This document shows positions 786-28,232 of a stretch of DNA of 32,000 nucleotides, in pieces (the stretch's first letter is position 1; each line of letters starts with the position of its first letter). The position numbers and the translations under genes were made by a program. The DNA is from Pseudoalteromonas translucida KMM 520 (GTDB taxonomy: Bacteria; Pseudomonadota; Gammaproteobacteria; Enterobacterales; Alteromonadaceae): positions 210,001-242,000 of the forward strand of contig NZ_CP011035.1 in NCBI RefSeq assembly GCF_001465295.1. Reading direction: 5' to 3'. The notes under the pieces are model-generated. The model worked only from the letters and a program-made list of their open reading frames with translations. It was not told where the DNA came from and searched no databases.

Positions 786-800
786 CTTTAACTAGTTTAG

Positions 801-10910: not shown

Positions 10911-11717
10911 TCATAAATCAGGGAAATGGCCATAGGCTTCATTTATTTGATAGTTTTGCTGACTGACCCAGGTAAAGTAATCTTTATTAGCTAATAAACT
11001 GGCAGCATCGTTGTCGATCATCACTATCGCGTTTTTATGCATTTGTAAAATTGACGCCGGGCAACTTGCCGAAAGTGGGCCGTTTACCATGTCATTTACC
11101 GCTTGTGCTTTATTTTTACCTGTGGCGATTAATAACACATACTTAGCGTCCATTATGGTAGCAATACCCATGGTCATCGCCATTTTTGGTTGTTGCTCAT
11201 CGTCTGAAAACATTCTGCTGTTGTCTGATACGGTTTGCTCAGTTAGCGATTTGATCCGGGTGCGAGATGCAAAGCTTGATGAGGGTTCATTAAAGCCAAT
11301 ATGGCCATTGCCGCCAATGCCTAAAAGTTGCAGATCTAAGCCTCCGAGCGCCGCTATTTGCTGCTCAAAATGTTCACCTTGTTTTCTAGGATCTTGTTTG
11401 GCGTTACAAGTTGGTAAATGGGTATTGTTTTTATCTATATCTATGTGATTGAACAGTTGGCTGTTCATAAAGTAACGGTAGCTATTACTATTATTTTCAT
11501 CGATATCGTAATACTCATCTAAATTAAATGTATTTACCTGAGCAAAACTAATATGCTTATTTTTATACATCGATACTAGCTGCTTATATAAATCAATAGG
11601 CGTGCTACCTGTAGCTAGGCCTATATTTGCATTGCTTTTTGCTAAAATTAACTTTTGTAGCAACGTTGCTGCATTTTCAGCAACAGCTTTTTTATCATCA
11701 AATATAAGTACTTGCAT
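10911..11717 (-). CDS. nagB: Glucosamine-6-phosphate deaminase
   Basis: 268 aa, colinear with E. coli NagB (GLATGSTP, FNLDEY, GIGGNGHIGFNEP, SRTRIK). Last gene of the nan operon. Confidence 0.95.
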   Translation of the reverse strand: MQVLIFDDKKAVAENAATLLQKLILAKSNANIGLATGSTPIDLYKQLVSMYKNKHISFAQVNTFNLDEYYDIDENNSNSYRYFMNSQLFNHIDIDKNNTHLPTCNAKQDPRKQGEHFEQQIAALGGLDLQLLGIGGNGHIGFNEPSSSFASRTRIKSLTEQTVSDNSRMFSDDEQQPKMAMTMGIATIMDAKYVLLIATGKNKAQAVNDMVNGPLSASCPASILQMHKNAIVMIDNDAASLLANKDYFTWVSQQNYQINEAYGHFPDL

Positions 11718-11718
11718 T

Positions 11719-12594
11719 TTACTTCTCTATTAATTGATTTTTAGCGTAGTGATGCACACCGATTAAATCGGCATCTGCACCCGATACCGGCTGTAACAAG
11801 GTTACTTGATAAATTGCCGGTGCTTGTTGAATTTTTTCAGCTACTTTATTAAAAAACAATGCTGACAAACCCACACTGCCTCCAATAACAACCATTTCAT
11901 TGCCAAATGTGGCTTTCATATTAAATATCAGCTCGGCCACGGCCGATGCGGCATTATCAATAATTTCGGCTACTTCAGGATGCTCAGCGTAGTTTGTAAA
12001 TACGTCTTTTGCATTGAGTGTTTTACCCAGTGCTTTGCTGGCGTGTTTAGCAATAGCAGTGCCTGAGGCAATTGACTCAACACAGTTTTTTCTGCCGCAG
12101 TGGCAGCTGTAGTTATGGTTTGATTGAATATGTACCGTGGTGTGGCCTAGGTGGGCACAAAACCCATCGGCGCAGGTGATTATTTGGTCGTTAAATACAA
12201 TGCCTGCACCCACTCCTGTTGATACGGTAATGTAAATAAAGTTTTTATATTTTACCTGCTCATTTACCGTGTATTCAGCCCAAGCGGCTGCAGAGGCATC
12301 GTTAATTATAGTGACGGGTAGGTTAGTTAGGCTTTCTAACTGTGCTTTTAATGGTAATTTACGACGCACAGATAAAAAATTCACAAATTCTGCGCTAACT
12401 TGGCCTGTGCAAGCAATATTAATTGCGCTGGCTTGAGGTACCCACTTTTCAATTACGGTATAAACGTATGCCGCTAAGTCATCAATATTAGTATGTATAA
12501 TAGAGTCAACTTTTAATGAATTAACGATTTGGTCATTATCAATAAGTGCGCAGGCTATTTTGGTGCCGCCAATATCAATGGCAATATTCATCAT
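11719..12594 (-). CDS. nanK: N-acetylmannosamine kinase (ROK family)
   Basis: 291 aa, the same length as E. coli NanK. Motifs IAIDIGGTKIA, NDASAAAWAE and ITVSTGVGAG, plus the ROK zinc motif CHCGRKNCVE. The start overlaps the nanE stop (TAATG). Confidence 0.9.
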   Translation of the reverse strand: MMNIAIDIGGTKIACALIDNDQIVNSLKVDSIIHTNIDDLAAYVYTVIEKWVPQASAINIACTGQVSAEFVNFLSVRRKLPLKAQLESLTNLPVTIINDASAAAWAEYTVNEQVKYKNFIYITVSTGVGAGIVFNDQIITCADGFCAHLGHTTVHIQSNHNYSCHCGRKNCVESIASGTAIAKHASKALGKTLNAKDVFTNYAEHPEVAEIIDNAASAVAELIFNMKATFGNEMVVIGGSVGLSALFFNKVAEKIQQAPAIYQVTLLQPVSGADADLIGVHHYAKNQLIEK

Positions 12595-13301
12595 TAAATA
12601 TCACTCTTTGCATTGTTAATACTTTGCACAAACCACCCAGTTATATGCTCAAGGCGGGTAATTGCCGAGCCAACAGTAACGCACAATGCACCGAGTTCAA
12701 TTGCTTTTGCAGCGCGCTCAGGCGAGTTGTAGCGCCCTTCGGCAATTACTTTTATACCAGCACTGACTAAGTCACTTACTAATTGATAGTCGGGTTCGTT
12801 AGGGGTTGTACTTAAATCTAAATAACCAGATAGCGTACTGCCAATAAAGGTACAGCCCGCGTCATGTAAAAACTTGCCGCCAGCAAGGTCAGCGCAGTCG
12901 GCCATAGCAATACAGCCGTGTTCGTGGATGGTGTTTAACAGAGTTAGCCTATCTACTGGGCGAGGTCTATCTGTGCCATCAAACGCGATAATAGTTGCGC
13001 CGGCTTCGGCCAGGCCAATAACGTCTTCAACAAAAGGGGTTATGCGCACCTCAGTATCAGTAAGGTCGCGTTTAACAATGCCTACAATAGGAATATTGCT
13101 TACTTTTGCGACCGCACGTACATTTTCAATGCCTTCAATTCTTAGTGCTTTTGCACCCCCAGCTACGGTTGCTAATGCCATAGCAACAATATGCTCAACT
13201 TTATCCATAGGACCATCGTCAAGAGGCTGGCATGATGCAATTAAGCTACTTTGCAAATGGTTTACTAAAAAACTCTCTAACTCTATATTTTTATTTGACA
13301 T
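12594..13301 (-). CDS. nanE: N-acetylmannosamine-6-phosphate 2-epimerase
   Basis: 235 aa. Strong colinear resemblance to E. coli NanE: LIASCQPLDDGPMD, IVGIVKRDL, AFDGTDRPRP, IAEGRYNSP, VTVGSAITRLEHI. Confidence 0.95.
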   Translation of the reverse strand: MSNKNIELESFLVNHLQSSLIASCQPLDDGPMDKVEHIVAMALATVAGGAKALRIEGIENVRAVAKVSNIPIVGIVKRDLTDTEVRITPFVEDVIGLAEAGATIIAFDGTDRPRPVDRLTLLNTIHEHGCIAMADCADLAGGKFLHDAGCTFIGSTLSGYLDLSTTPNEPDYQLVSDLVSAGIKVIAEGRYNSPERAAKAIELGALCVTVGSAITRLEHITGWFVQSINNAKSDI

Positions 13302-13320
13302 ATTTTGCTCTTAAATTTGG

Positions 13321-15759
13321 TTATTGGTTCATTGTATATAAGGTTAATTTTGAAAGATCTTTATTGTGTGCAGGGAATAATAAACTAACTAAGTAGCCAA
13401 CAATTAAGCAGGTTAAAATACCTATTGTTCCGTAAAGGTAGCCATTAGCCCAGCCATATTTCCATGCTGAAATCATTAAGCTCACCCCTGAGATTATACC
13501 TACTATAGCGCCTACAGAGTTAGCACGTTTGGTTAATGCGCCAAGTATAAATATGCCACCTAATGCACCCATAAACATACCAATTACTTTAAAATAAGCT
13601 TCCATTAGTGAGCGTATTTCAGGGTCGATAAATATTAATCCAACTAAGGTGCCTAATACGCCAGAAATAAAAGTAAGGATGCGCGCTAAGCTCATATAAG
13701 ACTTCTCAGATTTGGCTAAATTAAAAGGTCGTACAAAGTCGGTTAATACCGTAGTGGCAATAGAGTTCATGCTGGTTGAAACCGTTGACTGCGCTGCTGC
13801 AAAAATACCTGCAATAATGAGTCCGGCTAAACCCATTGGTAGTTCATTTGAGATAAACGTAGGGAAAATTTGATCAATTTGAATGGTTGGATCGAGTTTT
13901 TCAGGGTTAAGTTGGTAAAAAGCGTATAAGCCTGTACCAATACAGAAAAACAATAACGCGCCCGGTGCCGCTAATATGGCATTAGCCCAAATAGATTTAA
14001 CCGCTGAGGCAGGATCTTTGGTTACCATGTATCTTTGCACAACGGCTTGATCTGCAGTGTAGCTCGATAAATTTTGCCCAATACCACCCAGCACAATAAC
14101 CCAAATAGATAAGCTAGTAATACTCTCAAGGCTAAAGTCGTTATTAACTATGGTAAATTTATCGTCAGCAAAACCAATTTGTATAAAGCTATTAAAGCCA
14201 TCATCGAGGCCAGCAATAATTACAGCAAAACACACAACAGCGCCAATAAGTAATACTACGGTTTGAATAGTATCAGTCCAAATAACGGCTTCAACACCAC
14301 CCAGTGTGCAATATAATAAACAAAGCATTCCCATAATAAGCACGCTATCAGAGGCACTAAGAGGGGTTACCGCCGACAAAGCCAACGCGGTTAATGCCAT
14401 AACAATACCCATACGGCCAATATGAAATAAGGTGAATAAGCCACTGGCAAAAAGTCGTACCGGCATATTAAATCTTTTTGATAAAAACTCATATGCACTG
14501 GTTGCATCTAGCTGTCTAAAAAAGGGAATTGCTACATATACAGCAATAGGCGCTACTGCAATTATCATCCAAATACCAATAAGCAGTACCCAGTTAGTTT
14601 GATAAACAATGGCCGGAAGGGCGATGTAAGTTAACGAGCTTAACATAGTGGCATAAATAGAGCAGGCTGCAGCCCACCAAGGTATTGACTGCCCACCTCT
14701 AAAGTAATCGTTGGTGTTTTTATTTTTAAACATAAAATATAAACCAACCATGACCACAGAGAGTAAGTAAATCACTAAAACCAGCATGTTTTGCCAGCCA
14801 AAATCGCGGGCTGTATTACTAATTTCACCTTTAATTAAAACGGTATTGTTAGTATTTAACTCTGTTACTACTGCATAAGAGTGTTGCTGAGCCTGAGTTA
14901 TTTTATGAAAACGATAGTCTGACTTATTGTAATTAGACCACGCTTTAGTGATGGTATTGTATGACAAGGTTTTGCCACCTTGAGTCACTACCATAATATG
15001 AGATTGACCCAGAGGAGAGGCAAATACGAGCTTATCAATATCTACCAGCTCAGTGGGGTTACTACTTATTACGGTTAACCATGAATTTGTAGCTTCATCA
15101 AACTCGTGTAATAAAAGTTTAGAATTAGAGTTGCTGCTTTGCTCTGCGCCTTGTTGTGAAATAGCGTAAATGCGGTTTTCGTTGCCATCATTTTGCACCA
15201 CAAGTTCACTGTTAATAATGTTTAGATCTGTAAATAATGCTGCATTGAGTGGTGTCCACTGTTGCTGGTCATTATTTAGGGCTATTTTAAAAAAGTACCA
15301 CTGCTTATCAAAACCAGTAATGTACACGTTTTGCCCAAATACTTGCGCACTTACTTTACTAAACGAACGAGGTAAATTAGCTAACTGTTTTGAAACAATA
15401 TTTTGAGATTCATCATGCCATTCTAAAACATTAACACGTGTAGATTTAACCCCATTAACTAAGCCGCCTAGCACAATTGTTTTGTTATTGTGCTGCACTG
15501 TAATTGCTTGCGCTCTATTACCATCAATAGGTTTGAAGTTTAATACAGTACTTATTTCATGTGTTGCTAGGTCTAGCTTATTTAATTTGGCAAAGTCGGT
15601 ACTTGAAATAAACAAAGCGTCATTTGTTAAAAAATAGAAAGAATCTTTATTTATAGGTAGGTGGTTAGCGTTACTTTTAATAACGCTCCAATCAAGCTGT
15701 GTTTTAGCAAATGTATTGCATGATGTTAAAAGTAATAAAAAAATTATAATTATTCTCAT
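13321..15759 (-). CDS. Fusion protein: N-terminal periplasmic Kelch/NanM-like beta-propeller (~320 aa) plus a C-terminal sodium:solute symporter (SSS, SiaT-like sialic acid transporter)
   Basis: 812 aa. Signal peptide MRIIIIFLLLLTSCNTFA. Blade-like repeats (TIVLGGLVNG, NVYITGF, QQWTPL, NSWLTV, KAWSNY). From ~aa 325 a polytopic SSS core follows (NDYFRGGQSIPWW...). First gene of the nanE-nanK-nagB operon. The in-frame TAG 20 codons upstream leaves only this ATG as a start. Confidence 0.85.
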   Translation of the reverse strand: MRIIIIFLLLLTSCNTFAKTQLDWSVIKSNANHLPINKDSFYFLTNDALFISSTDFAKLNKLDLATHEISTVLNFKPIDGNRAQAITVQHNNKTIVLGGLVNGVKSTRVNVLEWHDESQNIVSKQLANLPRSFSKVSAQVFGQNVYITGFDKQWYFFKIALNNDQQQWTPLNAALFTDLNIINSELVVQNDGNENRIYAISQQGAEQSSNSNSKLLLHEFDEATNSWLTVISSNPTELVDIDKLVFASPLGQSHIMVVTQGGKTLSYNTITKAWSNYNKSDYRFHKITQAQQHSYAVVTELNTNNTVLIKGEISNTARDFGWQNMLVLVIYLLSVVMVGLYFMFKNKNTNDYFRGGQSIPWWAAACSIYATMLSSLTYIALPAIVYQTNWVLLIGIWMIIAVAPIAVYVAIPFFRQLDATSAYEFLSKRFNMPVRLFASGLFTLFHIGRMGIVMALTALALSAVTPLSASDSVLIMGMLCLLYCTLGGVEAVIWTDTIQTVVLLIGAVVCFAVIIAGLDDGFNSFIQIGFADDKFTIVNNDFSLESITSLSIWVIVLGGIGQNLSSYTADQAVVQRYMVTKDPASAVKSIWANAILAAPGALLFFCIGTGLYAFYQLNPEKLDPTIQIDQIFPTFISNELPMGLAGLIIAGIFAAAQSTVSTSMNSIATTVLTDFVRPFNLAKSEKSYMSLARILTFISGVLGTLVGLIFIDPEIRSLMEAYFKVIGMFMGALGGIFILGALTKRANSVGAIVGIISGVSLMISAWKYGWANGYLYGTIGILTCLIVGYLVSLLFPAHNKDLSKLTLYTMNQ

Positions 15760-15769
15760 AGTGCAACTG

Positions 15770-15801
15770 TATACCTGTTTGTGGTGTATACCTGTTATAC
15801 C
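15770..15801 (-). promoter_or_regulatory. NanR operator (GGTATA repeats) upstream of the fusion-transporter/nanEK/nagB operon
   Basis: The minus strand reads GGTATA-ACA-GGTATA-CACCACAAACA-GGTATA (hexamers at 15796-15801, 15787-15792 and 15770-15775). The first 15 nt match the E. coli nanA operator core GGTATAACAGGTATA. Confidence 0.8.
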
Positions 15802-15843
15802 ACTTGGCGTGTGGGAAATCTATAAATTTAACATTTGCGACAC

Positions 15844-15905: not shown

Positions 15906-16610
15906 TTAGTCGTAATAATTATCAAAAACATAATCTATATGGGCAGAAAGCTTTGCGTCAGCTCCCTCTACATCACCATTTTTTATACACTCAAAAATAG
16001 CAACATGGTCGTTATAACTTTGCTTATTTAATTCCACGGTATTAACGCGCTCGGGGCGAGCATCAATTAACCAGTCCATTAACGCTTGGTGTACAGCTAA
16101 AAATATTGGATTACCTGGAATAGAGGCAATCACCCGGTGGAAGTAAATATCTGTTTTTCTAAACTGGGTGTCGCTATTAATAGATTTGCTATTTAACTCA
16201 AGCGCTTCACCTAGTTCTTTTATTTGGCTAGGTGTTGCAGATGATGCGGCGTAGCGCACTAAGCTAGATTCAAAAAATCGTCTTAACTGGTCAAAATATT
16301 TTAAACCATTAGGCTGGGTAAGAAAATCCTTTGACATACCCGACAACTCAGAAATAATGGTGTCGGCTGAAGGGCGTGTTACCCTAGTTCTTTCACCGCT
16401 ACTTATTTTAACCAAGCCTTTACGTGCTAGTGCCGCTAAAGCATCCCTGATCGAAGGTCTACCGACGCCAAATGCAGCCATAAGATCTCGCTCAGAAGGC
16501 AGTGCATCACCTTCTGAAATTTCACCTTGACGGATCATGCGTTCGAGCTCTTCTTCAACCGTTTCTGACAACTTTTTGCGTTCGACAGGGCGCGTAATTT
16601 TTAATGACAT
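15906..16610 (-). CDS. nanR: GntR/FadR-family transcriptional regulator NanR (sialic acid regulon repressor)
   Basis: 234 aa. Extended colinear resemblance to E. coli NanR: [95 protein letters not shown]. Confidence 0.93.
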
Positions 16611-16695: not shown

Positions 16696-17658
16696 CTAGT
16701 CTATGGCAGTTTTTATCATAGCCAATGTGTTTTGTATGTATTGTATTCTACTCGCTAGCGGTTGCTGATGTGGCAAAATAGAGATTTTACAGCCTACAAA
16801 ATCTAATTTAGCACTTTGTTGTAATTGCATACATTTTTTAATTTCATGCTCACTCAACTCTGAATCTTTATTATTTAGCTGATCAAAATCATTCATAATA
16901 GGGGGCATATGGCTATCTTTCCAAGCGCCATATAAAGCCGATGTGCTGCTTGCCCCTGAGAATATCAGCCCTGAGAGCAAGTTTTCGTTTATGCAAAGCT
17001 GCATATGATGCAGTGGCCCGGTTGCGCTTTGAGCCTCAATGGCTGAGCGTCCCCAGTTAATAGTGATGCCTAATTTATTATTTGCCTGTTTATTAACAGT
17101 CGCTATAGCTAAAAGCTCGTCTTCAATGCGCATAAACCCTTTTTCACTGGATTGGTTTTGCATATATGCATCGCAATGTTCAATAATTAATTTAGCGCCA
17201 TGCCAATCCCAGCTTTGCAGCTCATTAAGTGACTTTACTAATGCACTGACAGAAGAGGAGGTATTAGGCGTAATTGCAGGGGCAGTATGAATTTGTATAT
17301 GACTTACCACTTGTTTATTAAAGTGGCTATTTAACTTGGCTATTTCCGTATTGGCTTGTTGATAAAAAGCTAATGCATTAAGTCGACCAGCCTCGTTATC
17401 AGAAGCGATACCAAAGTGCGGATCTTTTGCCAACTCCCCCATAGTCCCTGGTATGCAGGTAATAACATAGCACCAGTTTTTATCAAGTTGATTGTAAAAC
17501 CAGTCATTATCATATTTATGCAGCTTGCCAGTAAAGGGCACTTCTAAACCATCTATTAAGGTATTGTTTTTTAGTTGTTGATAAAATAAATGCTCAGTTT
17601 CTTTATCCCAGCTCGCATCTGAAGGCACAGATGCATAAGCCCCTACAATTATTTTCAT
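16696..17658 (-). CDS. Uncharacterised ~320-aa protein in the NanR regulon (possibly a TIM-barrel-type enzyme); family not recognised
   Basis: The track ORF starts at a TTG (17679). The ATG at 17658 (MKIIVGAYAS...) has AAAGGA upstream and is preferred. No signal peptide. Lies immediately upstream of nanR and is transcribed from the NanR-operator-bearing divergent promoter. Confidence 0.7.
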   Translation of the reverse strand: MKIIVGAYASVPSDASWDKETEHLFYQQLKNNTLIDGLEVPFTGKLHKYDNDWFYNQLDKNWCYVITCIPGTMGELAKDPHFGIASDNEAGRLNALAFYQQANTEIAKLNSHFNKQVVSHIQIHTAPAITPNTSSSVSALVKSLNELQSWDWHGAKLIIEHCDAYMQNQSSEKGFMRIEDELLAIATVNKQANNKLGITINWGRSAIEAQSATGPLHHMQLCINENLLSGLIFSGASSTSALYGAWKDSHMPPIMNDFDQLNNKDSELSEHEIKKCMQLQQSAKLDFVGCKISILPHQQPLASRIQYIQNTLAMIKTAID

Positions 17659-17770
17659 ATTAATCCTTTTAAGCTGCAATTTAGCGCCAGTAGCATAGTG
17701 ATCATCGTTTTAGTCTTAAAGTGGCTTAAATAACCATATTAAAATACTAAGGTTTTAATGTATATTGGTG

Positions 17771-17841: not shown

Positions 17842-18633
17842 GTGAAAATATATAAATACGGTAGTGACTCCCAACAATACGGACAGCTTTTTAGGCCAAA
17901 CAGTGAAGCAAGCGTCCCTGTGGTTATTGTTATACATGGCGGTTATTGGAAGGATAACCATAGCTTAGATACTTACCCTACTAAGCATATTGTTGAGTAT
18001 TTATTAGGCTTAAATGTGGCAGTATGGAATATAGAATATCGCAGAATGAATAGCATGGGACCTAATATTACCGCGCCATGGCCAACAATATTAAGTGATG
18101 TAGCACAAGGCGTTGATTTTTTAACCATTATTGCTGAGCAAGAAAAAATAGATTTAAAGCAGGTGATGATCATTGGCCACTCCGCAGGCGGACACCTAGC
18201 AACTTGGGCTGCATCACGCGCTATGATAGACAAACAGTCGGAGCTTTATAACAATGCTAGCCTAGCAATAAATACGGTGATTTCTATCTCTGGGGTGCTT
18301 GAACTAAGAACGCCTGCTGATTTGGGGCAACCACTACAAATTGAAAAATTATTAGGCGGTCAATTTACTCGCGATCACTGCCGAGTAAAAAACGCTAATC
18401 CGTCGCAGTTAATCGATAATACAGTGAATTATATTATTATTCATGGTGATAGCGATGAAGAGGTGAGTATTAATCAAGCGCTTAGTTTTGTTGAAAATAG
18501 TCACTCGAGCAATGTGCTATTACATGTTTTAAAGGGGATTGGTCACTTTCAAATGTTCCCCAGCTTTAATAAAGATCTGCAAAGTTGGCAGTTGGTGCAG
18601 AAAATTATTAACCAAAATCTAAAAACACCTTAA
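17842..18633 (+). CDS. Alpha/beta-hydrolase fold esterase/amidase (HGG-type, Abhydrolase_3 / arylformamidase-like)
   Basis: 263 aa with a GTG start. Oxyanion-hole motif IHGGYW, nucleophile elbow GHSAGGH, and late IIHGDSD and GHF fitting an Asp/His triad. No signal peptide. Confidence 0.8.
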   Translation: MKIYKYGSDSQQYGQLFRPNSEASVPVVIVIHGGYWKDNHSLDTYPTKHIVEYLLGLNVAVWNIEYRRMNSMGPNITAPWPTILSDVAQGVDFLTIIAEQEKIDLKQVMIIGHSAGGHLATWAASRAMIDKQSELYNNASLAINTVISISGVLELRTPADLGQPLQIEKLLGGQFTRDHCRVKNANPSQLIDNTVNYIIIHGDSDEEVSINQALSFVENSHSSNVLLHVLKGIGHFQMFPSFNKDLQSWQLVQKIINQNLKTP

Positions 18634-20925: not shown

Positions 20926-23757
20926 TTAGAAGTTTAATTTAACACCGGCGTAATATGAGCGGCCTGTTAAATCATACGCACTACCATTTGTTAAAGTACC
21001 TTGTTGCTGATACTTATGACCAGCCGTTAGGTGTGGTGGCTGCTCGTCAAATAAGTTAGTGATACCAAAGTAAGCATTGATTTGGTTAGTAAAGTTATAG
21101 CTAAAACGCACATCGTTATAAAGACGTGAGTCGATAGAGTTAAGCTCTTCTGTTAATACGGTATTATCGTTACGGTCTTTGGTTTCATCCCAGTAACGTA
21201 CTTGCCAATACACATTGAACTCATTAATTGTGTACGATGCATTAACGTTAAAACGCAGCTCTGGGAACATTACTTCGCCAGCTAACTCTTGTTTGTCACC
21301 CGTTTCGAGTCCTGTAATGCTGTAAGTGTCTAAGATGTTTGCTGCAAAGCCTACATACAAATCACCATCACCTAAGTCGGTCATGTATGACACATCAATA
21401 TCAAGGCCTCTTGTTTCAATGAGGTTTTCGTTACCAGATGCTGCATTTACTTCAAGTGCTGCACCTGAACGTCCATCACGGCGTACTAAGCCGCCACATT
21501 GTGCATCAAAATTGCTAGGATCTGCAGAGTAACAACGATTTAAGATAACGGTACGGTCGGTTTTAGCGATGGCATCATCAATCTTAATGTCGTAATAATC
21601 AAGTGACATTTGTAAGCCCGCAATTGACTCAGGCGTAAACACGATACCGGCTGTGACAGTATCGGCTTTTTCTTCTTTAACATCGGTAGAGCCGCTTAAT
21701 AAACCTGCGGTATTTTGACGTTCTACTTGCGTTAAGTTAAATGCGCCCTCGCTATCGATACGATCAGCAATAGCTGCAACCGAGCGACAGTTTACTGCAA
21801 TATTGCCACTATCAGCATTCGTTAGTCCGTCACAAGGGTCAGTAACCAGTGCTGCGGTTGCAGTACCACCAGCAAACAAATCACTTACGTTAGGCGCACG
21901 TACTGCTGTTGCTACCGCACCGCGTAGGCGAATACTGTCTGTAATTGGTGCATCTAAGCCAATAGTCCAGTTAGTAGTGCTACCGACCGACGAGTAATCG
22001 CCAAAACGTACTGCAGCAGATAAGCTTAACTTTTCATGTAGTGGAATATGTAACTCACCAAACACGTCAACAACGTCAAATGAGCCTTTGGTTTTAGCAA
22101 TTGCTGCACCACGTACAATACCGGCTTGGCGTAGTGGATCTGGTGTTTCATGGCCTTTTTCTTCACGGTATTCTACACCACCAGCAAAACCGATAGTGTC
22201 TACGTCGTTACTAACGGCATAATCTAATCGACCAGCAACAACGGCGGTTACTACCACTTGCTCAATACTACCTTCTAGATTGGTATCAGCTGATAAGTAA
22301 TCTACTGCTTCAGGCGAAATGCCATTAAGCGAGAACGGATTGAATACAACACAGCCATTAATGCGAGCAATGTCATCAGCACACTGATATCCGCCAGCGC
22401 CATTATCTTCAACATTTAAAGCAAAGCGAGCGCGGTCAAGGTTAATGTCGCCATGGTTAGTTTGCTTTTGATCTGTAACGCCATAAGTACCGCTTACTTT
22501 TAAGTAAATATCATTTGAAATATCATACTCATATTCGCCTGCAACTCTAAATGTGCTACGGGTGTTTTCAGCCCCACGGTCACCAAATTCATATAGGCGT
22601 CTAAATGTTAAGCTTGCATCATCAAGACTATTAATGCCGTCGGCAAGTAAGTTATTGCCAAGTGCAGTACCTGCAAACCAAGGGTGCGTTGCAATATCAA
22701 TACCTGTAGTACCGCCTTTAGATAACTTAAAAATGTCGTTGCGGGTATCAAGTGGAATAGGCTCATAACGAGCTCGTGAATCTACACGCGCGTAGTTAGC
22801 CGTAAAGTTCATCCGCGATTTTTCGTTTAAATCCAGTGATAAACCAGTGGCAACAAAGTGGCGTGTTAGTGGCGCTATCATAGAGCGGTAATCGTGAAAG
22901 TTAAACGCATCTGACGTGGCTGGATCATCAGTACGGGTAAATAAGCTACCGTCACCATTGTATTTATCAATACGGCCACCAAAAACATGCGAAGAGCCCA
23001 CAAACTGAGATGTATCGCGTATGCCATCGCCATCAGTGTCTACTGCGTCTTTGTGCACGCGTGAATAGTCACGATCGCTAGCCATTAAGCCATCATCTTC
23101 AGAGTAACCAACGGATAACCAAGCATTACCGTCATCAAAGTTTTTACCAATTGAAAATTCGATATCTCTTGTGTCTTTATCACCTTCGCCACTGCGTCCA
23201 GCTTGTGCTTTAAAAGCGACACCGTCAAAGTTTTTCTTAAGGATAATGTTAACCACACCTGCAACTGCATCAGAGCCATAAGCAGCAGATTGACCGCCGG
23301 TAAGTACTTCAATACTTTGGATCATAGTGGTAGGAATTGTGTTTAAATCAACACCGTAGCCAGAGCCAACAGACATGCCAGAAACGTAACGCTTACCATC
23401 AACTAGTACTAAGGTACGCGAAGATCCTAAGTTACGTAAAGCAACGGTATTTAAGCCTGAATCTTGCTCACTGATATTAGAGCTAGCCGAGGTTGTATCA
23501 CCCACTACTGAGGGCATTCTAGCTAGTAGGTCACCCACGTTTACTGCGCCAACACCTTCAATATCATCAGCGTCTAATATTTTTACTGGTGAAGCAGACT
23601 CAAAGTCGCCTTTACTAATATATGAACCAGTTACAATTATTTTTTCTACTTTTGCTTCTGCTTTTACATTGTCTGAATCTGCAGCTAATGAATAAGTTGT
23701 TACCGAAGCAATACTGATCGCCAGTAGTGATTTAACAAGTGTTTTTGATTTCAACAT
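20926..23757 (-). CDS. TonB-dependent outer-membrane receptor, first gene of a NanR-controlled operon (candidate sialic acid / sialoglycan importer)
   Basis: 943 aa. Signal peptide ...TYSLAADS. Plug start VEKIIVTGSY. C-terminal YYAGVKLNF. NanR operator upstream. Confidence 0.9.
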   Translation of the reverse strand: MLKSKTLVKSLLAISIASVTTYSLAADSDNVKAEAKVEKIIVTGSYISKGDFESASPVKILDADDIEGVGAVNVGDLLARMPSVVGDTTSASSNISEQDSGLNTVALRNLGSSRTLVLVDGKRYVSGMSVGSGYGVDLNTIPTTMIQSIEVLTGGQSAAYGSDAVAGVVNIILKKNFDGVAFKAQAGRSGEGDKDTRDIEFSIGKNFDDGNAWLSVGYSEDDGLMASDRDYSRVHKDAVDTDGDGIRDTSQFVGSSHVFGGRIDKYNGDGSLFTRTDDPATSDAFNFHDYRSMIAPLTRHFVATGLSLDLNEKSRMNFTANYARVDSRARYEPIPLDTRNDIFKLSKGGTTGIDIATHPWFAGTALGNNLLADGINSLDDASLTFRRLYEFGDRGAENTRSTFRVAGEYEYDISNDIYLKVSGTYGVTDQKQTNHGDINLDRARFALNVEDNGAGGYQCADDIARINGCVVFNPFSLNGISPEAVDYLSADTNLEGSIEQVVVTAVVAGRLDYAVSNDVDTIGFAGGVEYREEKGHETPDPLRQAGIVRGAAIAKTKGSFDVVDVFGELHIPLHEKLSLSAAVRFGDYSSVGSTTNWTIGLDAPITDSIRLRGAVATAVRAPNVSDLFAGGTATAALVTDPCDGLTNADSGNIAVNCRSVAAIADRIDSEGAFNLTQVERQNTAGLLSGSTDVKEEKADTVTAGIVFTPESIAGLQMSLDYYDIKIDDAIAKTDRTVILNRCYSADPSNFDAQCGGLVRRDGRSGAALEVNAASGNENLIETRGLDIDVSYMTDLGDGDLYVGFAANILDTYSITGLETGDKQELAGEVMFPELRFNVNASYTINEFNVYWQVRYWDETKDRNDNTVLTEELNSIDSRLYNDVRFSYNFTNQINAYFGITNLFDEQPPHLTAGHKYQQQGTLTNGSAYDLTGRSYYAGVKLNF

Positions 23758-23863
23758 GGTATCCCCAAAAATTTATAATTATTTTTTAAATGTTTATTCA
23801 TAACTCGCTTTGCTCGATAACAGCAAAATAACACAACAAAGCACTGAAGTTACAAGTACGCCA

Positions 23864-23886
23864 TTAACCTGTTATACCAGCGTACC
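23864..23886 (-). promoter_or_regulatory. NanR operator upstream of the TonB-dependent receptor-nagA-nanA operon
   Basis: The minus strand reads GGTACG-CT-GGTATA-ACA-GGTTAA, three hexamers spaced 8 and 9 nt as in the E. coli (GGTATA)3 operator. Contains CTGTTATACC (23869-23878). Confidence 0.75.
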
Positions 23887-24081: not shown

Positions 24082-25224
24082 TTACGCGTCGTTATTTTGT
24101 AAACTAATGCGCGTAAATGAAATAGCACTATAGTTATCGCGTTCAAACATTACGCCTATTTCGTTATCGCTTAACTGGCAAATAGAAGAGTAGCCAAATG
24201 AGCCACTATAAACACATGCTATGTGTTGCCAGCTTGTAGCGTCATCCAGGCTTATTTTTAGCGTGCCTTGAATACGTTGAGACTGATGTTCTGGGCCACA
24301 ATATAATAGTCCACTGTGCTTAGCGTCGTGTTGTAAGCTAATAATACTGCCCTGACATTCGGGCTCGGTTAAATCGGGCGTGTCTTGCAGTGCAGTCCAA
24401 CTAATACCGCCATTTTCACTAAAGGCAGTTTTACGCAGGTGATTACCATGATAACTGCGGGCATTAAGTAGTACCCGACCATCAGCAAGCTCGGCCATTT
24501 GTGTTTCATTAGCGTGCTCAGCTATTGCAGCAGGGGCAACCTCACCGTATTGCCATTGGTGGCCACCATCGTCACTATACACAGCGTATACTTTCATATT
24601 ATCCCAAGGGCCTTGGGTAAATGGCATTACAATACGGTTTTTATAACTCCCGGTACGCAGTTGAATACCTATGCCCGGACCACCAGCGTAGCAGGTAACC
24701 TCGGTTGGGCGTTTAACTTGGCGGGTAATATCTACCCGTGGTGACCAATTGAGTCCGCCATCGCTGCTGCGTTGTACAAAGGTACGGCAAATTCGCCCTT
24801 GGTAGCCTGTCTCTACCGCGCCTTCGTGAACATTAGATGGAAAGTTTTGCCCTGCATGAGATATCCACGCTGCTGGGTTTTCAACTTGTTCGGGCGTGGT
24901 ATATGGATACTCTTGGTACATTAATACTATATCGCCTGAGCTAGCATCAATTACAACCAAAGGATTATTTAAGGCATTTTCGCCAGCATCGGCTACCAGA
25001 ATTTGCTCGCTCCAGCTTGTGCCGTTATCTTGGCTGGTTTTTAGTACGATTTTATTGTGAGCATGGTCTGACAATATCGCACGTGCTTCGCAAAATGCGA
25101 GTAGTTTTCCCTCTGGCATAGGCAATAATGCCGGAATACGATAACTACCAAAGCCATCTGTTTCGGCCTCAAAAATATTGCTGATCACTGTGGTATTTGT
25201 CAGTGAAGGTTGCACAGTACTCAT
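24082..25224 (-). CDS. Exo-alpha-sialidase (small, single-domain six-bladed propeller; no signal peptide)
   Basis: 380 aa. The YRIPALL motif is the FRIP equivalent. Five Asp-boxes: SQDNGTSW, SSDGGLNW, SDDGGHQW, SENGGISW, LDDATSW. GAGGAG lies 6 nt upstream of the ATG and an in-frame TAA is the codon before it, so the N-terminus MSTVQPSLTNTT... is firm and non-hydrophobic. Confidence 0.92.
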   Translation of the reverse strand: MSTVQPSLTNTTVISNIFEAETDGFGSYRIPALLPMPEGKLLAFCEARAILSDHAHNKIVLKTSQDNGTSWSEQILVADAGENALNNPLVVIDASSGDIVLMYQEYPYTTPEQVENPAAWISHAGQNFPSNVHEGAVETGYQGRICRTFVQRSSDGGLNWSPRVDITRQVKRPTEVTCYAGGPGIGIQLRTGSYKNRIVMPFTQGPWDNMKVYAVYSDDGGHQWQYGEVAPAAIAEHANETQMAELADGRVLLNARSYHGNHLRKTAFSENGGISWTALQDTPDLTEPECQGSIISLQHDAKHSGLLYCGPEHQSQRIQGTLKISLDDATSWQHIACVYSGSFGYSSICQLSDNEIGVMFERDNYSAISFTRISLQNNDA

Positions 25225-25284
25225 TTAAAACTCCTCGGCTGCAAGGGTTAAATAATAGTGGTTTAAACGGCTGCAGCTAGCCGA

Positions 25285-27909
25285 TCACTTCATCGTATGA
25301 ATAGTTAAGCCGCTAAGGTTATTAGTCGGTTGTTTGCTAAATAAGGCACTGGCAACATAGCCAACAAAAATACAGCTAACTATGCCAATGGTGCCAAATA
25401 AATAGCCTTCTACTAGCTCAAATATCCATGCAAACATCATAGTAATTACGCCAAAAAACAACCCAACCATGGCACCGGAGGCATTGGCTCGGGTACTAAT
25501 TATCCCCAAAATAAATAGCCCACCGAGTGCGCCCATAAACATACCCACCACTTTAAAGTACTCCTCCATTAACGAGCGAATTTCGGGGCTAATAAATAAT
25601 AAGCCAACTAAAGTACCAAAAATGCCTACTAATAGAGTTAACAGTCGCGCTGCATTTAGGTAGCCTTTTTCACTGCGGCAAAGATTAAAAGGGCGCATAA
25701 AATCGGTTACTAAAGTGGTCGACATTGAGTTCATACTGGTTGATACGGTCGATTGCGCAGCAGCAAAAATGCCAGCAATAATAAGCCCTGCAATGCCAAT
25801 AGGTAGCTCACTTGAAATAAAAGCAGGGAATATTTGGTCAATTTGTTTGGTTGGATCGAGTTTTTCGGGATTCGACTGGTAAAAAACATATAAACCAGTA
25901 CCAATAATAAAAAACAATACAGATGCTACCGGTGCCATAATACCGTTAGTCCAAATTGATTTGCGGGCAGAGGCCACATCTTTAGTGGTCATGTAGCGTT
26001 GTACAATAGATTGATCGGCTGTATAAGTTGATAGATTTTGCCCTATACCGCCCAGCACAATTACCCAGATAGAGAGCTTAGTGAAACTATCCATACTGAA
26101 GTCTAGATCAAGGGTTTTAAACTTGTCATTGGCGATACCACTGCGAAATATTTCCGCTATGCCACCATCAACACCACTGACAATATAAGCAAAGCATAAT
26201 AGCGCGCCTAAAAGCAGAACCACGGTTTGTATAGTGTCGGTCCAAATAACGGCTTCAATACCACCGAGCGTGCAATATATTAAGCTCAGTACTCCAATGA
26301 TCAGCACGCACTGCCACGCATCAAAAGGAGTTACAGCTGCAAGCGCAAGTGCAGTTAACGCCATAACAATACCCATACGACTAATATGAAACAGGGTAAA
26401 TAAGCCACTAGCAAACAGGCGCACCGGCATATTAAAGCGCAGTGATAAAAACTCATAAGCACTGGTTGCATCTATTTTACGAAAGAACGGCATAGCAACA
26501 TAAGCTGCAATGGGCGTTACCGCCAAAATCATCCAAATACCGCCCCAATATAACCAGTCGGTTCTGTAAACAATGGCAGGAATACCCACAAAGGTCAGCG
26601 AGCTGAGCATAGTTGCGTACATTGAGCAGGCATTGGCCCACCAAGGAATATTTTGGCCACCACGGAAGTAGTCGTTCACGTTTTTGTTTTTAAACACGAA
26701 GTACACGCCAATTAGCACCATAGCAAACAAGTACACAACCAATACCGTCATATTTTGCCAACCAAAGGCGTCACTCGCCTCAGCAATTGCTGCCAATTTT
26801 AGGCTGCTATTAAATTTACTGGCTTGATGAACGAGTATTTTTCCATCCCAAGGTAATACTGCCATTGAATTTGCTGCTTGATGAACAGGCATTGCAGCTT
26901 GATGAACAGGCATAGCCAAAAGCTGTGGATCAATGCTGTCATATTTTGCCCACACATTAGTGATGGCGTTATAGCTCAGCACTTGTTTTTGGTTGGCGCT
27001 ACTGGCAAACAGTAAAAAATGAGACTGACCAATTGCCAGTGCATTACCAGAGCTCAGCTGTAAATTAGGTAACTCACTGTTAAACCCGCTTTGTGGTATC
27101 CAATGTGGCTGTGAATCATCTGTCTTATATTTCCATAGTGAACTTTGGCTGTTGGAATTTGGCATTTCTAAAGCAAATAATACATCTCCACGGCCGTCAT
27201 TTTGGCTAACTAATGTAATTGATTGCGGGCGAGGGGTTAATTTTTGCCAGTTTGCAGCTGCAGTATAGTGCTTTGGCTCACTACCTTGGGTGAAAGCAGC
27301 TAGCGCTGATGTGGTTAAATCAAGCGCATAAAGTGCAGTGGTTTTACCTGTGTCAGTTGCCGTTACCAGTACATATAAGGTACTACCAACAAAAGCAGCA
27401 GAACCTTCACGCATAGGAATAGGCAGCGCAGGCAGTGTATGCATTTCTATGCCAGATGCTTGATTACGACGCACTAGCAAGGTGTCGTTAAAGGTATGAG
27501 TTTCATCACTGCCACCAAGCAGTACTATGCCATTTTCAAAAGAGGCAGAGGCTCCATAAGCACGAGGTGAAGGCAGCTTAATGGCAGCTTTTTTCCAATT
27601 TAAAGTACGTGGCTGATTAGGGTTTTGCTCCCCAAGCCATATTGAGCTGAGGTATTTGGGTGCGCTACTACGGGAGTTGTTAGTGCTTATTCCGCCAGCA
27701 ATTACCAGTAATTCATTATGTACCCCAACTAAAGGAGCATAGCGAGAAACGGCTTCTACTGGCGCGGCTTGCTCACTCCAGTGTAGTGCAATGCGCTCGC
27801 CAGCATATGCATGAGAAGTTAAGCCAAGCAAGATTGCCAAAAGGCAAAAAATAACATGTAAAGCTCGCAATGAATGGGTGCGTAAGCGCATTAAAAAAAG
27901 GCGATGCAT
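25285..27909 (-). CDS. Second fusion protein: periplasmic Kelch/NanM-like propeller (~385 aa) plus an SSS symporter (SiaT-like)
   Basis: 874 aa. Signal peptide ...LLGLTSHAYA. Kelch-like blades (LLVIAGGIS, PRAYGASASFENGIVLLGGSD, MREGSAAFVGSTLYVL, NWQKLTP, NVWAKYD). The SSS core is highly similar to 13321-15759, whereas the propellers are strongly diverged. Confidence 0.85.
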   Translation of the reverse strand: MHRLFLMRLRTHSLRALHVIFCLLAILLGLTSHAYAGERIALHWSEQAAPVEAVSRYAPLVGVHNELLVIAGGISTNNSRSSAPKYLSSIWLGEQNPNQPRTLNWKKAAIKLPSPRAYGASASFENGIVLLGGSDETHTFNDTLLVRRNQASGIEMHTLPALPIPMREGSAAFVGSTLYVLVTATDTGKTTALYALDLTTSALAAFTQGSEPKHYTAAANWQKLTPRPQSITLVSQNDGRGDVLFALEMPNSNSQSSLWKYKTDDSQPHWIPQSGFNSELPNLQLSSGNALAIGQSHFLLFASSANQKQVLSYNAITNVWAKYDSIDPQLLAMPVHQAAMPVHQAANSMAVLPWDGKILVHQASKFNSSLKLAAIAEASDAFGWQNMTVLVVYLFAMVLIGVYFVFKNKNVNDYFRGGQNIPWWANACSMYATMLSSLTFVGIPAIVYRTDWLYWGGIWMILAVTPIAAYVAMPFFRKIDATSAYEFLSLRFNMPVRLFASGLFTLFHISRMGIVMALTALALAAVTPFDAWQCVLIIGVLSLIYCTLGGIEAVIWTDTIQTVVLLLGALLCFAYIVSGVDGGIAEIFRSGIANDKFKTLDLDFSMDSFTKLSIWVIVLGGIGQNLSTYTADQSIVQRYMTTKDVASARKSIWTNGIMAPVASVLFFIIGTGLYVFYQSNPEKLDPTKQIDQIFPAFISSELPIGIAGLIIAGIFAAAQSTVSTSMNSMSTTLVTDFMRPFNLCRSEKGYLNAARLLTLLVGIFGTLVGLLFISPEIRSLMEEYFKVVGMFMGALGGLFILGIISTRANASGAMVGLFFGVITMMFAWIFELVEGYLFGTIGIVSCIFVGYVASALFSKQPTNNLSGLTIHTMK
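26876..26917 (-). repeat. In-frame 21-bp tandem duplication inside the propeller-coding part (AMPVHQA AMPVHQA)
   Basis: Unit 1 is 26876-26896 (gcttgatgaacaggcattgca). Unit 2 is 26897-26917 (gcttgatgaacaggcatagcc). They match at 18 of 21 positions. A related gcttgatgaac occurs at 26822-26832. Confidence 0.85.
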
Positions 27910-27974
27910 AGCGGGTATTCCTATTATTTTTAGCAGAGTTTAATACACAAAGATGGATAACACTGTTTTGGATG

Positions 27975-27989
27975 TATACCTGTTATACC
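27975..27989 (-). promoter_or_regulatory. NanR operator upstream of the second fusion-transporter/sialidase operon
   Basis: The minus strand reads GGTATA-ACA-GGTATA, a perfect 15-mer identical to the E. coli operator core, 66-80 nt upstream of the ATG at 27909. Confidence 0.8.
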
Positions 27990-28232
27990 AGTTGTTATTT
28001 TCTAAATCTAGCAATACGAGGTGAATAGGGTGAATTAATTGTTGATGTTGTAGTCGGTAGGTAAATAAATGTTATGTAGGGCATCGCAGGTTTATTAATA
28101 ATATCAACCGCCACTAGCACTTAGCGCGAGATAGCGTGTGGGTTGCTGAGCATATTTTAATAAAACTGCTATTAACCTAAAAAATAAAACATGCAATAAA
28201 AGGAAGGTTATTACATCTGGTTACTTCGTAAC

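Follow-up and report, generated by a model that had tools for sequence, protein, structure and literature searches.

A probable Alteromonadales version of the NanR sialoregulon in Pseudoalteromonas translucida, with two SiaF lineages, a TonB-dependent receptor and a leaderless sialidase

How does a marine bacterium harvest sialic acids, and is the imported cargo trimmed inside the cell before it enters catabolism? The nan locus of Pseudoalteromonas translucida KMM 520 raises this question. We analysed it in a 32,000-nucleotide stretch of contig NZ_CP011035.1 (hereafter the window), in which it spans positions 10911-27990 and comprises 12 genes. The initial annotation counted 13 genes in four transcription units; the genes listed there sum to 12, and they form five units behind four operator regions, because the esterase gene is divergent from DUF4862-nanR. 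Profile searches (Pfam and NCBIfam) returned the gene content as it had been described, and the proposed layout also held up, namely a sialic-acid locus under NanR built like a proteobacterial TonB-receptor carbohydrate locus, with receptor, inner-membrane transporters, enzymes and regulator combined. Taken as a whole (regulon, pathway and uptake), it is probably the Alteromonadales version of the NanR sialoregulon, dedicated to the scavenging and catabolism of sialic acids.

The catabolic core is encoded by the following genes:
10911-11717, minus strand: nagB, glucosamine-6-phosphate deaminase (Pfam Glucosamine_iso, 92.8 bits), the last gene of the T1 operon
11719-12594, minus strand: nanK, ROK-family N-acetylmannosamine kinase (Pfam ROK, 180 bits)
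12594-13301, minus strand: nanE, ManNAc-6-P 2-epimerase (Pfam NanE, 262.6 bits)
18753-19658, minus strand: nanA, N-acetylneuraminate lyase (476 bits to 5AFD, 463 bits to 6H4E)
19677-20810, minus strand: nagA, GlcNAc-6-P deacetylase (TIGR00221, 296.5 bits, cut-off 225.65)

The best NCBIfam match of NanK is N-acetylmannosamine kinase at 248 bits, under the cut-off of 283 for that family, and 5AFD is the characterised Neu5Ac lyase of Aliivibrio salmonicida. The predicted NanA-NanK-NanE-NagA-NagB pathway is complete in the locus.

As in an E. coli-type NanR regulon, a NanR orthologue of the GntR/FCD type is present, together with candidate operators:
15906-16610, minus strand: nanR, GntR/FCD repressor of 234 aa (NCBIfam NanR PRK03837, 336 bits, cut-off 260)
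15770-15802, minus strand: predicted NanR operator 1, GGTATA-aca-GGTATA and, 11 nt further on, one more GGTATA; the operator ends 10 nt short of the T1 start codon
17760-17784, minus strand: predicted NanR operator 2, GGTATA / GCTACA / ATATAC with a 9-nt period, in the divergent promoter region
23864-23886, minus strand: predicted NanR operator 3, GGTACG / GGTATA / GGTTAA, upstream of the receptor
27975-27990, minus strand: predicted NanR operator 4, two perfect GGTATA repeats

The motif searched was TGGTATAACAGNTA, with at most one mismatch allowed. It gave four matches, compared to 0.09 expected by chance, and none of 100 shuffles reached four. All four lie on the minus strand, at 15789, 17771, 23866 and 27977, and these are the four promoter regions, which agrees with the earlier statement that NanR-type operators precede all the transcription units. 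Each predicted operator contains two to three GGTATA-like hexamers with a period of 8-9 nt and shares its repeat type with the E. coli NanR operator, (GGTATA)3 (PMC8012715). The assignment of the regulon and pathway to NanR-controlled sialic-acid catabolism is very likely correct. NanR would keep every unit repressed until Neu5Ac binds to it.

At the outer membrane, the locus encodes one candidate importer:
20926-23757, minus strand: TonB-dependent receptor of 943 aa (Pfam Plug + barrel), with signal peptide, plug and barrel

Its gene is the first of the receptor-nagA-nanA operon, inside the nan cluster and behind predicted operator 3, as in the Alteromonadales Nan regulon with OmpNan (Rodionov et al. 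2010). Receptor orthologues are found across Alteromonadales at 43-94% identity and adjoin nagA-nanA, sialidase, NanM, SASA or SiaF genes in loci L081, L083, L084, L089 and L092. In L001, L081, L082 and L083, the receptor orthologues are preceded by a GGTATAACAG box, which is also present in L085 (twice) and L089. In the comparison of genomes, which had been suggested as a check, other genera were thus found to keep the receptor linked to nan genes and to keep a NanR box in front of it. The receptor would replace the enteric NanC/OmpF porins and would import scarce sialic acid, possibly also very short sialosides, on TonB energy. In the literature, we found no experimental report of sialic-acid transport by OmpNan-type TonB-dependent receptors and no test of any proteobacterial sialic-acid TonB receptor.

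The inner-membrane transporter is duplicated and each copy is fused to a propeller, as had been noticed before:
13321-15759, minus strand: SiaF-1 (T1), 812 aa, with signal peptide, propeller and symporter (Pfam SSF, 126 bits)
25285-27909, minus strand: SiaF-2 (T2), 874 aa (351 bits to P. mirabilis SiaT, 5NV9)

In T1, a diverged Kelch-type propeller (approximately aa 20-320) precedes a SiaT-like Na+/solute symporter (aa ~325-812). This propeller falls under every NanM family threshold (21.6-22 bits; the Pfam NANM profile gives 22 bits, cut-off 45) and has no NanM match in the PDB. T2 consists of a signal peptide, a putative cyclically permuted mutarotase-like propeller and a SiaT-like symporter; the propeller scores 72.8 bits with TIGR03548 mutarot_permut, under the cut-off of 243, and matches NanM 2UVK (E=0.0013) in permuted order, while its single-sequence AF2 model was unusable (pLDDT 43). 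By sequence, T1 and T2 are distinct lineages, as their SSS domains are 70% identical and their propellers about 20%. The SSS domain of T1 shares 80% identity with NanP of the S. pealeana type from L085, and that of T2 shares 91% with the SiaF preceding the sialidase in L092. In the periplasm, the propeller domains may handle the sugar or present it.

Propeller-SSS fusions (NanM-SSS, ST5) were named SiaF by Severi et al. 2021, P. haloplanktis included, and all the SiaT residues in contact with Neu5Ac were stated to be conserved in SiaF (PMC8461474). The carboxylate and Na site residues S60, T63, R135, A56, L59, A339, S342, D182 and S345 are indeed kept in T1 and T2, including the Na2/Na3 sites in both copies, and the carboxylate and Na+ sites of SiaT are retained by every SiaF sampled. 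Full conservation of the Neu5Ac contacts is, however, contradicted by the pocket changes T58M, Q82I/T/L, F243G and Q250S/T, which are found in our alignments in all seven SiaF sampled (HMMER and MAFFT agree on the alignment position of Q82). In SiaT, these four residues touch the anomeric OH and the glycerol tail of the sugar as well as its N-acetyl region (PMC5931594). The substitutions common to the sampled SiaF sequences suggest that their cargo is not identical to that of SiaT. We found no direct test of any SiaF transporter in the literature.

Behind T2, in the same unit, lies the sialidase gene:
24082-25224, minus strand: GH33 exo-sialidase of 380 aa without a signal peptide, with the catalytic set and three canonical Asp-boxes

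The claim that this enzyme has no export signal stands. The ORF is maximal and starts with MSTVQPSLTNTT..., the RIP motif is already reached at R29, and there is no hydrophobic leader, with the highest 10-residue hydropathy below 1. The GH33 catalytic residues R29, D53, E240, R256, R317 and Y345 are all present, as are three SxDxGxxW boxes. R29, R256, R317, D53, E240 and Y345 align with R68, R276, R342, D92, E260 and Y370 of the M. viridifaciens sialidase 1EUR, where these positions are the Arg triad, the Asp acid/base and the Glu-Tyr nucleophile pair. All 33 of the closest sialidase clusters (at least 50% identity) are leaderless, whereas more distant clusters mostly have a leader. Leaderless copies adjoin SiaF in the window, L089, L090, L091 and L092. 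In the window, as in L092, a T2-type SiaF gene stands directly upstream of them; the gene order in L092 is siaF-sialidase-nanE-nanK-nagB. No description of this clade recurring beside SiaF was found in the literature on these loci.

Two further genes flank the divergent promoter region:
16696-17658, minus strand: DUF4862 protein, 320 aa from ATG (Pfam DUF4862, 405 bits), upstream of nanR
17842-18633, plus strand: BD-FAE alpha/beta-hydrolase esterase, 263 aa (Pfam BD-FAE, 113 bits)

The DUF4862 gene most likely starts at the ATG at 17658, which gives 320 aa as in homologues, rather than at the TTG at 17679, and it sits behind a predicted NanR operator. The AF2 model (pLDDT 93.4) is a xylose-isomerase-like TIM barrel, for which Foldseek gave UlaE, ketose 3-epimerases (DPEase) and xylose/rhamnose isomerases as the best matches (probability 1.0, E 2.6e-8), although the match is remote (about 11% identity, TM ~0.6). 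Residues E167, H168, C169, D170, E215, H225, D255 and H257 are invariant and would be the candidates for a canonical Glu-Asp-His-Glu metal site. In L086 and L087, DUF4862 genes were found with no link to nan genes, and L088 carries one in a cluster for nonulosonic-acid biosynthesis. The protein could be an accessory enzyme of the sugar isomerase/epimerase kind, with an intermediate derived from sialic acid as its substrate. The esterase has a GHSAGG serine motif and no signal peptide, its PDB relatives are carboxyl and acetyl-xylan esterases, and its family is also found in nan loci L081, L084 and L085. Predicted to be cytoplasmic, this BD-FAE esterase belongs to the conserved gene set of such loci. 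It does not belong to the SGNH/SASA (PF03629) class of the known sialate O-acetylesterases (NanS/EstA) and, because of this difference in fold, we infer a sialate esterase role from its context only. Neither the DUF4862 barrel model behind a NanR operator nor the conserved esterase was found described in the literature on nan loci.

How much of this design is new? The route had been called undescribed for gammaproteobacteria, yet it was already predicted from genomes between 2009 and 2021. Almagro-Moreno & Boyd 2009 reported two SSS transporters (PSHAb0151/0160) in the nan cluster of P. haloplanktis (PMC2693436). According to the predictions of Rodionov et al. 2010, the NanR regulon of Shewanella pealeana contains OmpNan (a TonB-dependent receptor), NanP (SSS), nanEK-nagB and nagA-nanA; the paper also noted a similar cluster in Pseudoalteromonas haloplanktis (PMC2996990). 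We found no experimental characterisation of orthologous loci in the literature, nor any expression, growth or transport data. With the overall design already predicted, there are only a few new leads: the internal sialidase, the esterase and the DUF4862 TIM-barrel protein. Features noted here that we did not find described in the literature are the two SiaF lineages, the SiaF pocket changes, the leaderless sialidase clade, the DUF4862 fold and the conserved esterase.

In our best explanation, T1 would supply the core pathway, and the T2-sialidase module together with the cytoplasmic BD-FAE esterase would trim non-standard cargo inside the cell. Such cargo might be a small sialoside or a sialic acid in modified form, for instance an O-acetylated one. 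That imported sialosides or modified sialic acids are trimmed in the cytoplasm is a tentative proposal. Internal trimming is favoured by the conserved leaderless sialidase clade next to SiaF, the leaderless esterase recurring in nan loci and the SiaF pocket changes. Against the import of large oligosaccharides are the SiaT-like carboxylate site, which fits free sialic acid, and the monosaccharide-sized solutes carried by known SSS transporters. A mutarotase-like domain would make sense only with a free anomeric centre, which argues against a glycoside cargo. A more specific version, which we regard as doubtful, is that T2-type SiaF and the leaderless GH33 form a unit, in which the SSS symporter carries either a small sialoside, still intact, or some non-canonical sialic acid across the inner membrane and Neu5Ac is released in the cytoplasm, with the BD-FAE esterase (a deacetylase) and DUF4862 (an isomerase or ring-opening enzyme) as new cytoplasmic sialometabolic enzymes.

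These proposals have to be weighed against several others. The locus might be a PUL-like selfish system, in which the receptor imports sialylated oligosaccharides, the second fusion transporter takes them across the inner membrane and desialylation is cytoplasmic. TonB-dependent receptors commonly take oligosaccharides (PMC2996990), the window contains no secreted sialidase, and the conserved leaderless GH33 clade is linked to SiaF in L089-L091 as well as lying downstream of T2-type SiaF in the window and L092. We nevertheless think this unlikely: the SSS fold with its conserved SiaT carboxylate and Na sites suggests a monosaccharide-sized acidic cargo, Pfam-type searches of the locus proteins found no genes for catabolism of a released aglycone (galactose, GalNAc, lactose), and in the close relative L081 a 765-aa sialidase with a lectin-insertion domain (taken to be of the secreted type) and a free NanM, beside the same receptor, fit a release of free sialic acid outside the cell. 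Alternatively, the locus may serve free Neu5Ac alone. The receptor would then be a high-affinity NanC replacement, consistent with the view of OmpNan as a functional equivalent of NanC (Rodionov et al. 2010) and with the conserved SiaT-like binding core; the SiaF copies would differ in affinity or conditions, and the sialidase would act only once cells lyse or vesicles are released, a possibility that has been discussed for C. perfringens NanH. This is somewhat unlikely, as the whole clade keeps a leaderless sialidase inside nan operons (L092 order), which is hard to explain without a cytoplasmic substrate, and the pocket changes in all SiaF sampled suggest a cargo not identical to that of SiaT.

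It is improbable that the T2-sialidase module salvages the dehydrated sialic acids of other microbes (2,7-anhydro-Neu5Ac, Neu5Ac2en), with the cytoplasmic GH33 as a hydratase regenerating Neu5Ac: the enzyme carries every residue of the hydrolytic catalytic set and lacks the extra domains that intramolecular trans-sialidases typically carry, and the window has no NanY/NanOx-type oxidoreductase. What speaks for it is that the leaderless sialidase gene in L091 overlaps a gene of the GFO/IDH/MocA oxidoreductases, the family of NanY/NanOx (PMC8461474), and that anhydro-sialic acid is a suspected cargo of the ST5 relatives (SiaX). It is very improbable that the locus targets nonulosonic acids of another type (KDN, legionaminic or pseudaminic acid) in place of Neu5Ac; the DUF4862 gene in biosynthesis cluster L088 and the hydrophobic or small SiaF equivalent of Gln82, the glycerol-tail binder in SiaT, would fit them, but NanK, NanE, NagA and NagB serve specifically the route from ManNAc to GlcNAc-6-P, NanA scores about 475 bits to a characterised Neu5Ac lyase, and NanR with its operator matches the Neu5Ac-responsive E. 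coli system.

If the T2-sialidase unit works as proposed, it would represent a way of acquiring sialic acid that has yet to be demonstrated in Gram-negative bacteria, and the SiaF substrate would differ from that of SiaT; if only free Neu5Ac is used, the locus would be an ordinary lineage-specific version of the nan regulon. Since it unites, under one well-understood repressor, a dedicated receptor with SiaF transporters of two lineages, a leaderless sialidase and a pair of enzymes without assigned role, the locus is a convenient system for asking what SiaF carries, why the propeller is fused, and how marine bacteria gain the heavily modified sialic acids present in the mucus of fish and invertebrates.

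Among known systems, the predicted Nan regulon of S. pealeana (Spea_1513-1523; Rodionov et al. 2010, BMC Genomics 11:494) shares with the window a NanR of the GntR type whose E. coli-like sites precede several units, a TonB-dependent receptor (OmpNan), the SSS NanP (which is actually a fusion, ~892 aa), nanE-nanK-nagB and nagA-nanA. The S. pealeana-type locus L085 also has the DUF4862 and BD-FAE genes, to which the paper gives no assignment. The window differs in having two SiaF lineages rather than one, in lacking a free NanM, and in its leaderless 380-aa sialidase being co-transcribed with a transporter. Its receptor heads the nagA-nanA operon, unlike ompNan, which is placed before free NanM and sialidase, and is only 44% identical to the second receptor of L081, which precedes free NanM and sialidase and served as a proxy for the ompNan type. 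The nan cluster of P. haloplanktis TAC125, from the same genus and with two SSS transporters about nine genes apart that were later recognised as NanM-SSS fusions, is very probably orthologous, as judged from published descriptions. In the P. haloplanktis papers, with table entries and figure mentions only, we found no description of the receptor, leaderless sialidase, DUF4862 or esterase.

The E. coli NanR sialoregulon (nanATEK-yhcH, nanCMS, yjhBC) likewise combines a NanR orthologue with operators built of GGTATA repeats and with the NanA/K/E core. In the window, a TonB-dependent receptor stands in place of the NanC porin, SiaF in place of the MFS NanT, a fused mutarotase-like domain in place of free NanM, and an alpha/beta hydrolase in place of the SGNH-type NanS; YhcH is absent, and the N-terminal extension of NanR is much shorter (234 aa, GntR domain from residue 14) than the 32 residues in E. 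coli. Bacteroidetes NanOU (SusC/SusD-type) systems and classical PULs likewise cluster TonB-dependent sialic-acid uptake with catabolic genes, and SiaF-type transporters are common in Bacteroidetes. No SusD-family match was found among the locus proteins, however, and the receptor is Plug + barrel only, without the SusC-type N-terminal extension, and is regulated by a GntR repressor. Bifidobacterium longum subsp. infantis has intracellular sialidases that act on imported sialylated milk oligosaccharides. C. perfringens NanH is also a leaderless bacterial sialidase (PMC4509764). Like them, the window sialidase is a single-domain GH33 of about 380 aa tied to sialic acid catabolism, but it belongs to a Gram-negative bacterium, lies in a NanR operon and stands directly behind an SSS-type transporter instead of an ABC oligosaccharide importer.

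The locus at 10911-27990 contains 12 genes, in agreement with the list in the initial annotation, which had been miscounted as thirteen. They form five transcription units, not four, served by four operator regions:

minus strand, nagB, with nanK, nanE and T1
minus strand, nanK, with nagB, nanE and T1
minus strand, nanE, with nagB, nanK and T1
13321-15759, minus strand, T1, propeller-SSS fusion transporter (SiaF-1), 812 aa
15906-16610, minus strand, nanR, 234 aa (336 bits to the NCBIfam NanR model, cut-off 260)
minus strand, DUF4862 gene, beside nanR
plus strand, BD-FAE alpha/beta-hydrolase (esterase) gene
minus strand, nanA (476 bits to the Aliivibrio salmonicida Neu5Ac lyase, 5AFD)
minus strand, nagA, with nanA and the TonB-dependent receptor gene
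20926-23757, minus strand, TonB-dependent receptor, 943 aa, with nanA and nagA
24082-25224, GH33 sialidase, 380 aa, beside T2
beside the sialidase, T2, second propeller-SSS fusion transporter (SiaF-2), 874 aa

The locus holds two SiaT-like symporters, every enzyme of the Neu5Ac catabolic pathway, an orthologue of NanR and four operators, which bears out the earlier description of a NanR-wired sialic-acid locus. An Rfam search of the window gave no match.

We then examined the operators. The motif TGGTATAACAGNTA, allowing at most one mismatch, has 4 matches compared to 0.09 expected by chance, all on the minus strand and confined to four promoter regions. The operator before T1 reads GGTATA-aca-GGTATA followed by a third GGTATA, that in the divergent region GGTATA/GCTACA/ATATAC and that before the receptor gene GGTACG/GGTATA/GGTTAA, and two perfect GGTATA repeats precede T2. 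In related loci from other genomes, the core box GGTATAACAG precedes the genes of the receptor orthologues in L001, L081, L082 and L083, lies between the SiaF and receptor genes in L089, and is present in two copies in the Shewanella pealeana-type nan locus (L085); four more single matches in unrelated loci are about the chance expectation. We are highly confident in the assignment of these genes to one NanR regulon. In Escherichia coli, a 32-residue N-terminal extension of NanR mediates the cooperative assembly of three dimers (PMC8012715). The GntR domain of the 234-aa NanR encoded in the window starts at residue 14, so most of this extension is missing, and the shortened N-terminus may be related to the two-repeat operator at T2.

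The receptor gene keeps its association with nan genes in related genomes. The window receptor and one from a Pseudoalteromonas metagenome-assembled genome (L001) share 94% identity, and an exact-sequence look-up with the former gave no match. A contig search with the receptor alignment, which relied on motifs common to many TonB receptors, returned this one close locus and 79 distant, uninformative ones. Homologues of 43-92% identity occur in Shewanella, Thalassotalea, Alteromonas, Colwellia and Pseudoalteromonas, in consistent, nan-linked contexts (L081, L083, L084, L089 and L092). The receptor gene is accompanied by a nanA remnant and a SASA esterase gene in L083, by GntR/FCD, SiaF, nanE, ROK and BD-FAE genes in L084, and by SiaF, nanA and leaderless sialidase genes in L089 and L092. 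In L081, receptor-nagA-nanA adjoins genes for a free NanM, a BD-FAE protein, a second receptor and a sialidase of 765 aa that bears a lectin-insertion domain. This second receptor is 44% identical to that of the window and, like S. pealeana ompNan, lies ahead of a free NanM and a sialidase; from these sequences, we take the two as paralogous nan-linked receptor subtypes.

The window also encodes an unrelated TonB-dependent receptor (778 aa, 8075-10411), followed by a 470-aa amidohydrolase (the pair spanning 6570-10411). Because no NanR box accompanies the pair and this receptor is unrelated to the nan receptor, membership of the pair in the locus was considered and rejected; the two genes seem to form an uptake unit of their own. 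At 51-5457, where the GC content falls to 0.31-0.35, lie a WYL/WCX-domain protein (51-785), a short FtsZ/tubulin-family protein (859-1947, 362 aa; Tubulin 136 bits, FtsZ_C 53 bits) and two large tyrosine-recombinase-like ORFs (1990-3552 and 3676-5457), and this region appears to mark the border of a mobile or defence island, with the FtsZ-like gene as an orphan.

We next compared the two transporters. The SSS domains of T1 and T2 are 70% identical and their propellers only about 20%. T2 groups with the L092 SiaF encoded directly ahead of a leaderless sialidase (SSS 91%, propeller 40%), and T1 with the S. pealeana-type NanP (SSS domain 80%). Since their nearest relatives differ, a recent duplication in situ was rejected, and the window unites two lineages. 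T2 scores 351 bits against Proteus mirabilis SiaT, and the residues defined in SiaT by Wahlgren et al. 2018 (PMC5931594) were mapped onto seven sampled SiaF sequences. The carboxylate site (S60, T63 and R135), the Na2 site (A56, L59, A339, S342 and S/T343) and the Na3 site (D182, S345 and S/T346) are retained in 7/7. Four pocket residues are altered in all seven (T58 to M, Q82 to I/T/L, F243 to G and Q250 to S/T), and F78 is variable. The SiaT residues T58, Q82, F243 and Q250 make contacts to the anomeric hydroxyl, glycerol tail and N-acetyl region, and transport is lost in the Q82D mutant (PMC5931594). Our alignments thus disagree with the published statement that every binding residue is conserved across SiaT/X/F (Severi et al. 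2021, PMC8461474), and the altered residues suggest that the cargo of SiaF, or its binding mode, differs from that of SiaT.

Both propellers appear to be weak relatives of NanM. That of T2 scores 72.8 bits against the permuted-mutarotase model and aligns to 2UVK in permuted order at E=0.0013, and that of T1 stays under all NanM thresholds. For the T2 propeller, single-sequence AF2 modelling gave a pLDDT of 43, too low for use. A search of representative proteins with this propeller gave 731 matches, none below 1e-30, in which fusions of about 850-940 aa are mixed with free proteins of about 350-420 aa; this shows strong sequence divergence and little else. Late in this propeller, just ahead of the membrane domain, a 21-bp in-frame tandem duplication (26871-26913, 2.0 copies, 95% match) encodes AMPVHQA-AMPVHQA. 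The leader of T2 ends in AYAG and that of T1 (MRIIIIFLLLLTSCNTF...) in a lipobox-like LTSC, so that the N-terminus of T1, unlike that of T2, might be lipid-modified.

The sialidase, 97% identical to one from Pseudoalteromonas sp. K222D, has 6/6 catalytic residues and three Asp-boxes. The earlier observation that it lacks an export signal holds: its N-terminus is hydrophilic, and no clear N-terminal signal peptide was found in the 33 closest sialidase clusters (at least 50% identity), all of which carry the RIP motif 11-40 residues from the start. A clear leader is present in most of the more distant relatives (48% identity or less). Because no earlier start is available to the ORF and these 33 clusters are alike, a start-codon artefact was rejected, and judged by sequence the leaderless state is a conserved trait of the clade. 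Leaderless sialidase genes repeatedly adjoin siaF and nanA (L089-L092): with a receptor gene in L089, with sulfatase and GlcNAc 2-epimerase genes in L090 and L091, and in L092 as nanR followed by siaF-sialidase-nanE-nanK-nagB. L091 also carries further BNR protein, SASA, nanA and SiaF genes along with its sulfatases, and its leaderless sialidase gene overlaps the end of a GFO/IDH/MocA oxidoreductase gene (9027-11125, NanY/NanOx family). The leaderless precedent that we found is Gram-positive, Clostridium perfringens NanH (PMC4509764).

Two further enzymes are without an assigned role. The BD-FAE esterase (263 aa) is leaderless, with its serine in a GHSAGG motif, and its gene recurs in L081, L084 and L085. 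For DUF4862 (320 aa), a PDB sequence search gave noise and no relative, and a literature search no paper. Its alignment-based AF2 model (pLDDT 93.4) resembles UlaE, ketose 3-epimerases and xylose and rhamnose isomerases (probability 1.0, TM about 0.6, 11% identity), so that the predicted fold matches a xylose-isomerase-like TIM barrel. In L085 its gene and nagA-nanA diverge from a shared region that contains a NanR box, and the DUF4862 gene is probably the gene passed over in the list of Rodionov et al. It is also found alone in Paucibacter and Paraglaciecola, and within a large nonulosonic-acid biosynthesis cluster (L088, 1-20975; homologue 42% identical) with NeuB, a PglD-like acetyltransferase, a DegT aminotransferase, three CMP-sugar synthetase-like genes and GFO/IDH/MocA genes. 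Hence, the family may act on nonulosonic acids in both directions.

In the mechanism that we propose, Neu5Ac would derepress NanR, and scarce sialic acid would be taken up by a TonB-energised step in place of NanC/OmpF porins. The fused propellers would handle the sugar in the periplasm before its Na+-coupled import, and non-standard cargo would be turned into Neu5Ac in the cytoplasm by the leaderless sialidase and the esterase, perhaps together with DUF4862, and would then enter the canonical pathway. Such cytoplasmic trimming is a tentative and somewhat doubtful proposal. Rival readings of the locus are that oligosaccharides are imported, that Neu5Ac only is used, that anhydro- or dehydro-sialic acid is salvaged, or that other nonulosonic acids are the target.

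The interpretation in the initial annotation is partly supported, and its claim of a route undescribed in gammaproteobacteria fails, since its core design is found in three earlier papers. For S. pealeana, Rodionov et al. 2010 predicted from genomes, without a growth assay, a TonB-dependent receptor (OmpNan), an SSS transporter (NanP) and E. coli-like NanR sites, and mentioned a similar cluster in Pseudoalteromonas haloplanktis (PMC2996990); Almagro-Moreno and Boyd 2009 described its nan cluster with two SSS transporters, PSHAb0151/0160 (PMC2693436), the only paper found for six PSHAb locus tags; and Severi et al. 2021 defined SiaF as an ST5 SSS transporter with a cyclically permuted NanM, named P. 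haloplanktis among the rare gammaproteobacterial cases and emphasised the very scarce experimental evidence (PMC8461474). No experimentally characterised orthologous locus was found in the literature. In summary, the locus is one more case of a computationally predicted type, and its core design is not new; the leads worth experiment are the pairing of SiaF with a leaderless sialidase, the altered SiaF pocket, and the presence of DUF4862 and the BD-FAE esterase in the regulon.

Compared to known systems, the receptor is without the SusD-like partner that NanOU/SusCD systems have, so the locus is not of that kind. Its esterase is of a different type from NanS and EstA, which are SGNH/SASA enzymes. 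The predicted operators are built from repeats in the same way as the NanR operator of E. coli, in which two repeats suffice for high-affinity binding (PMC8012715).
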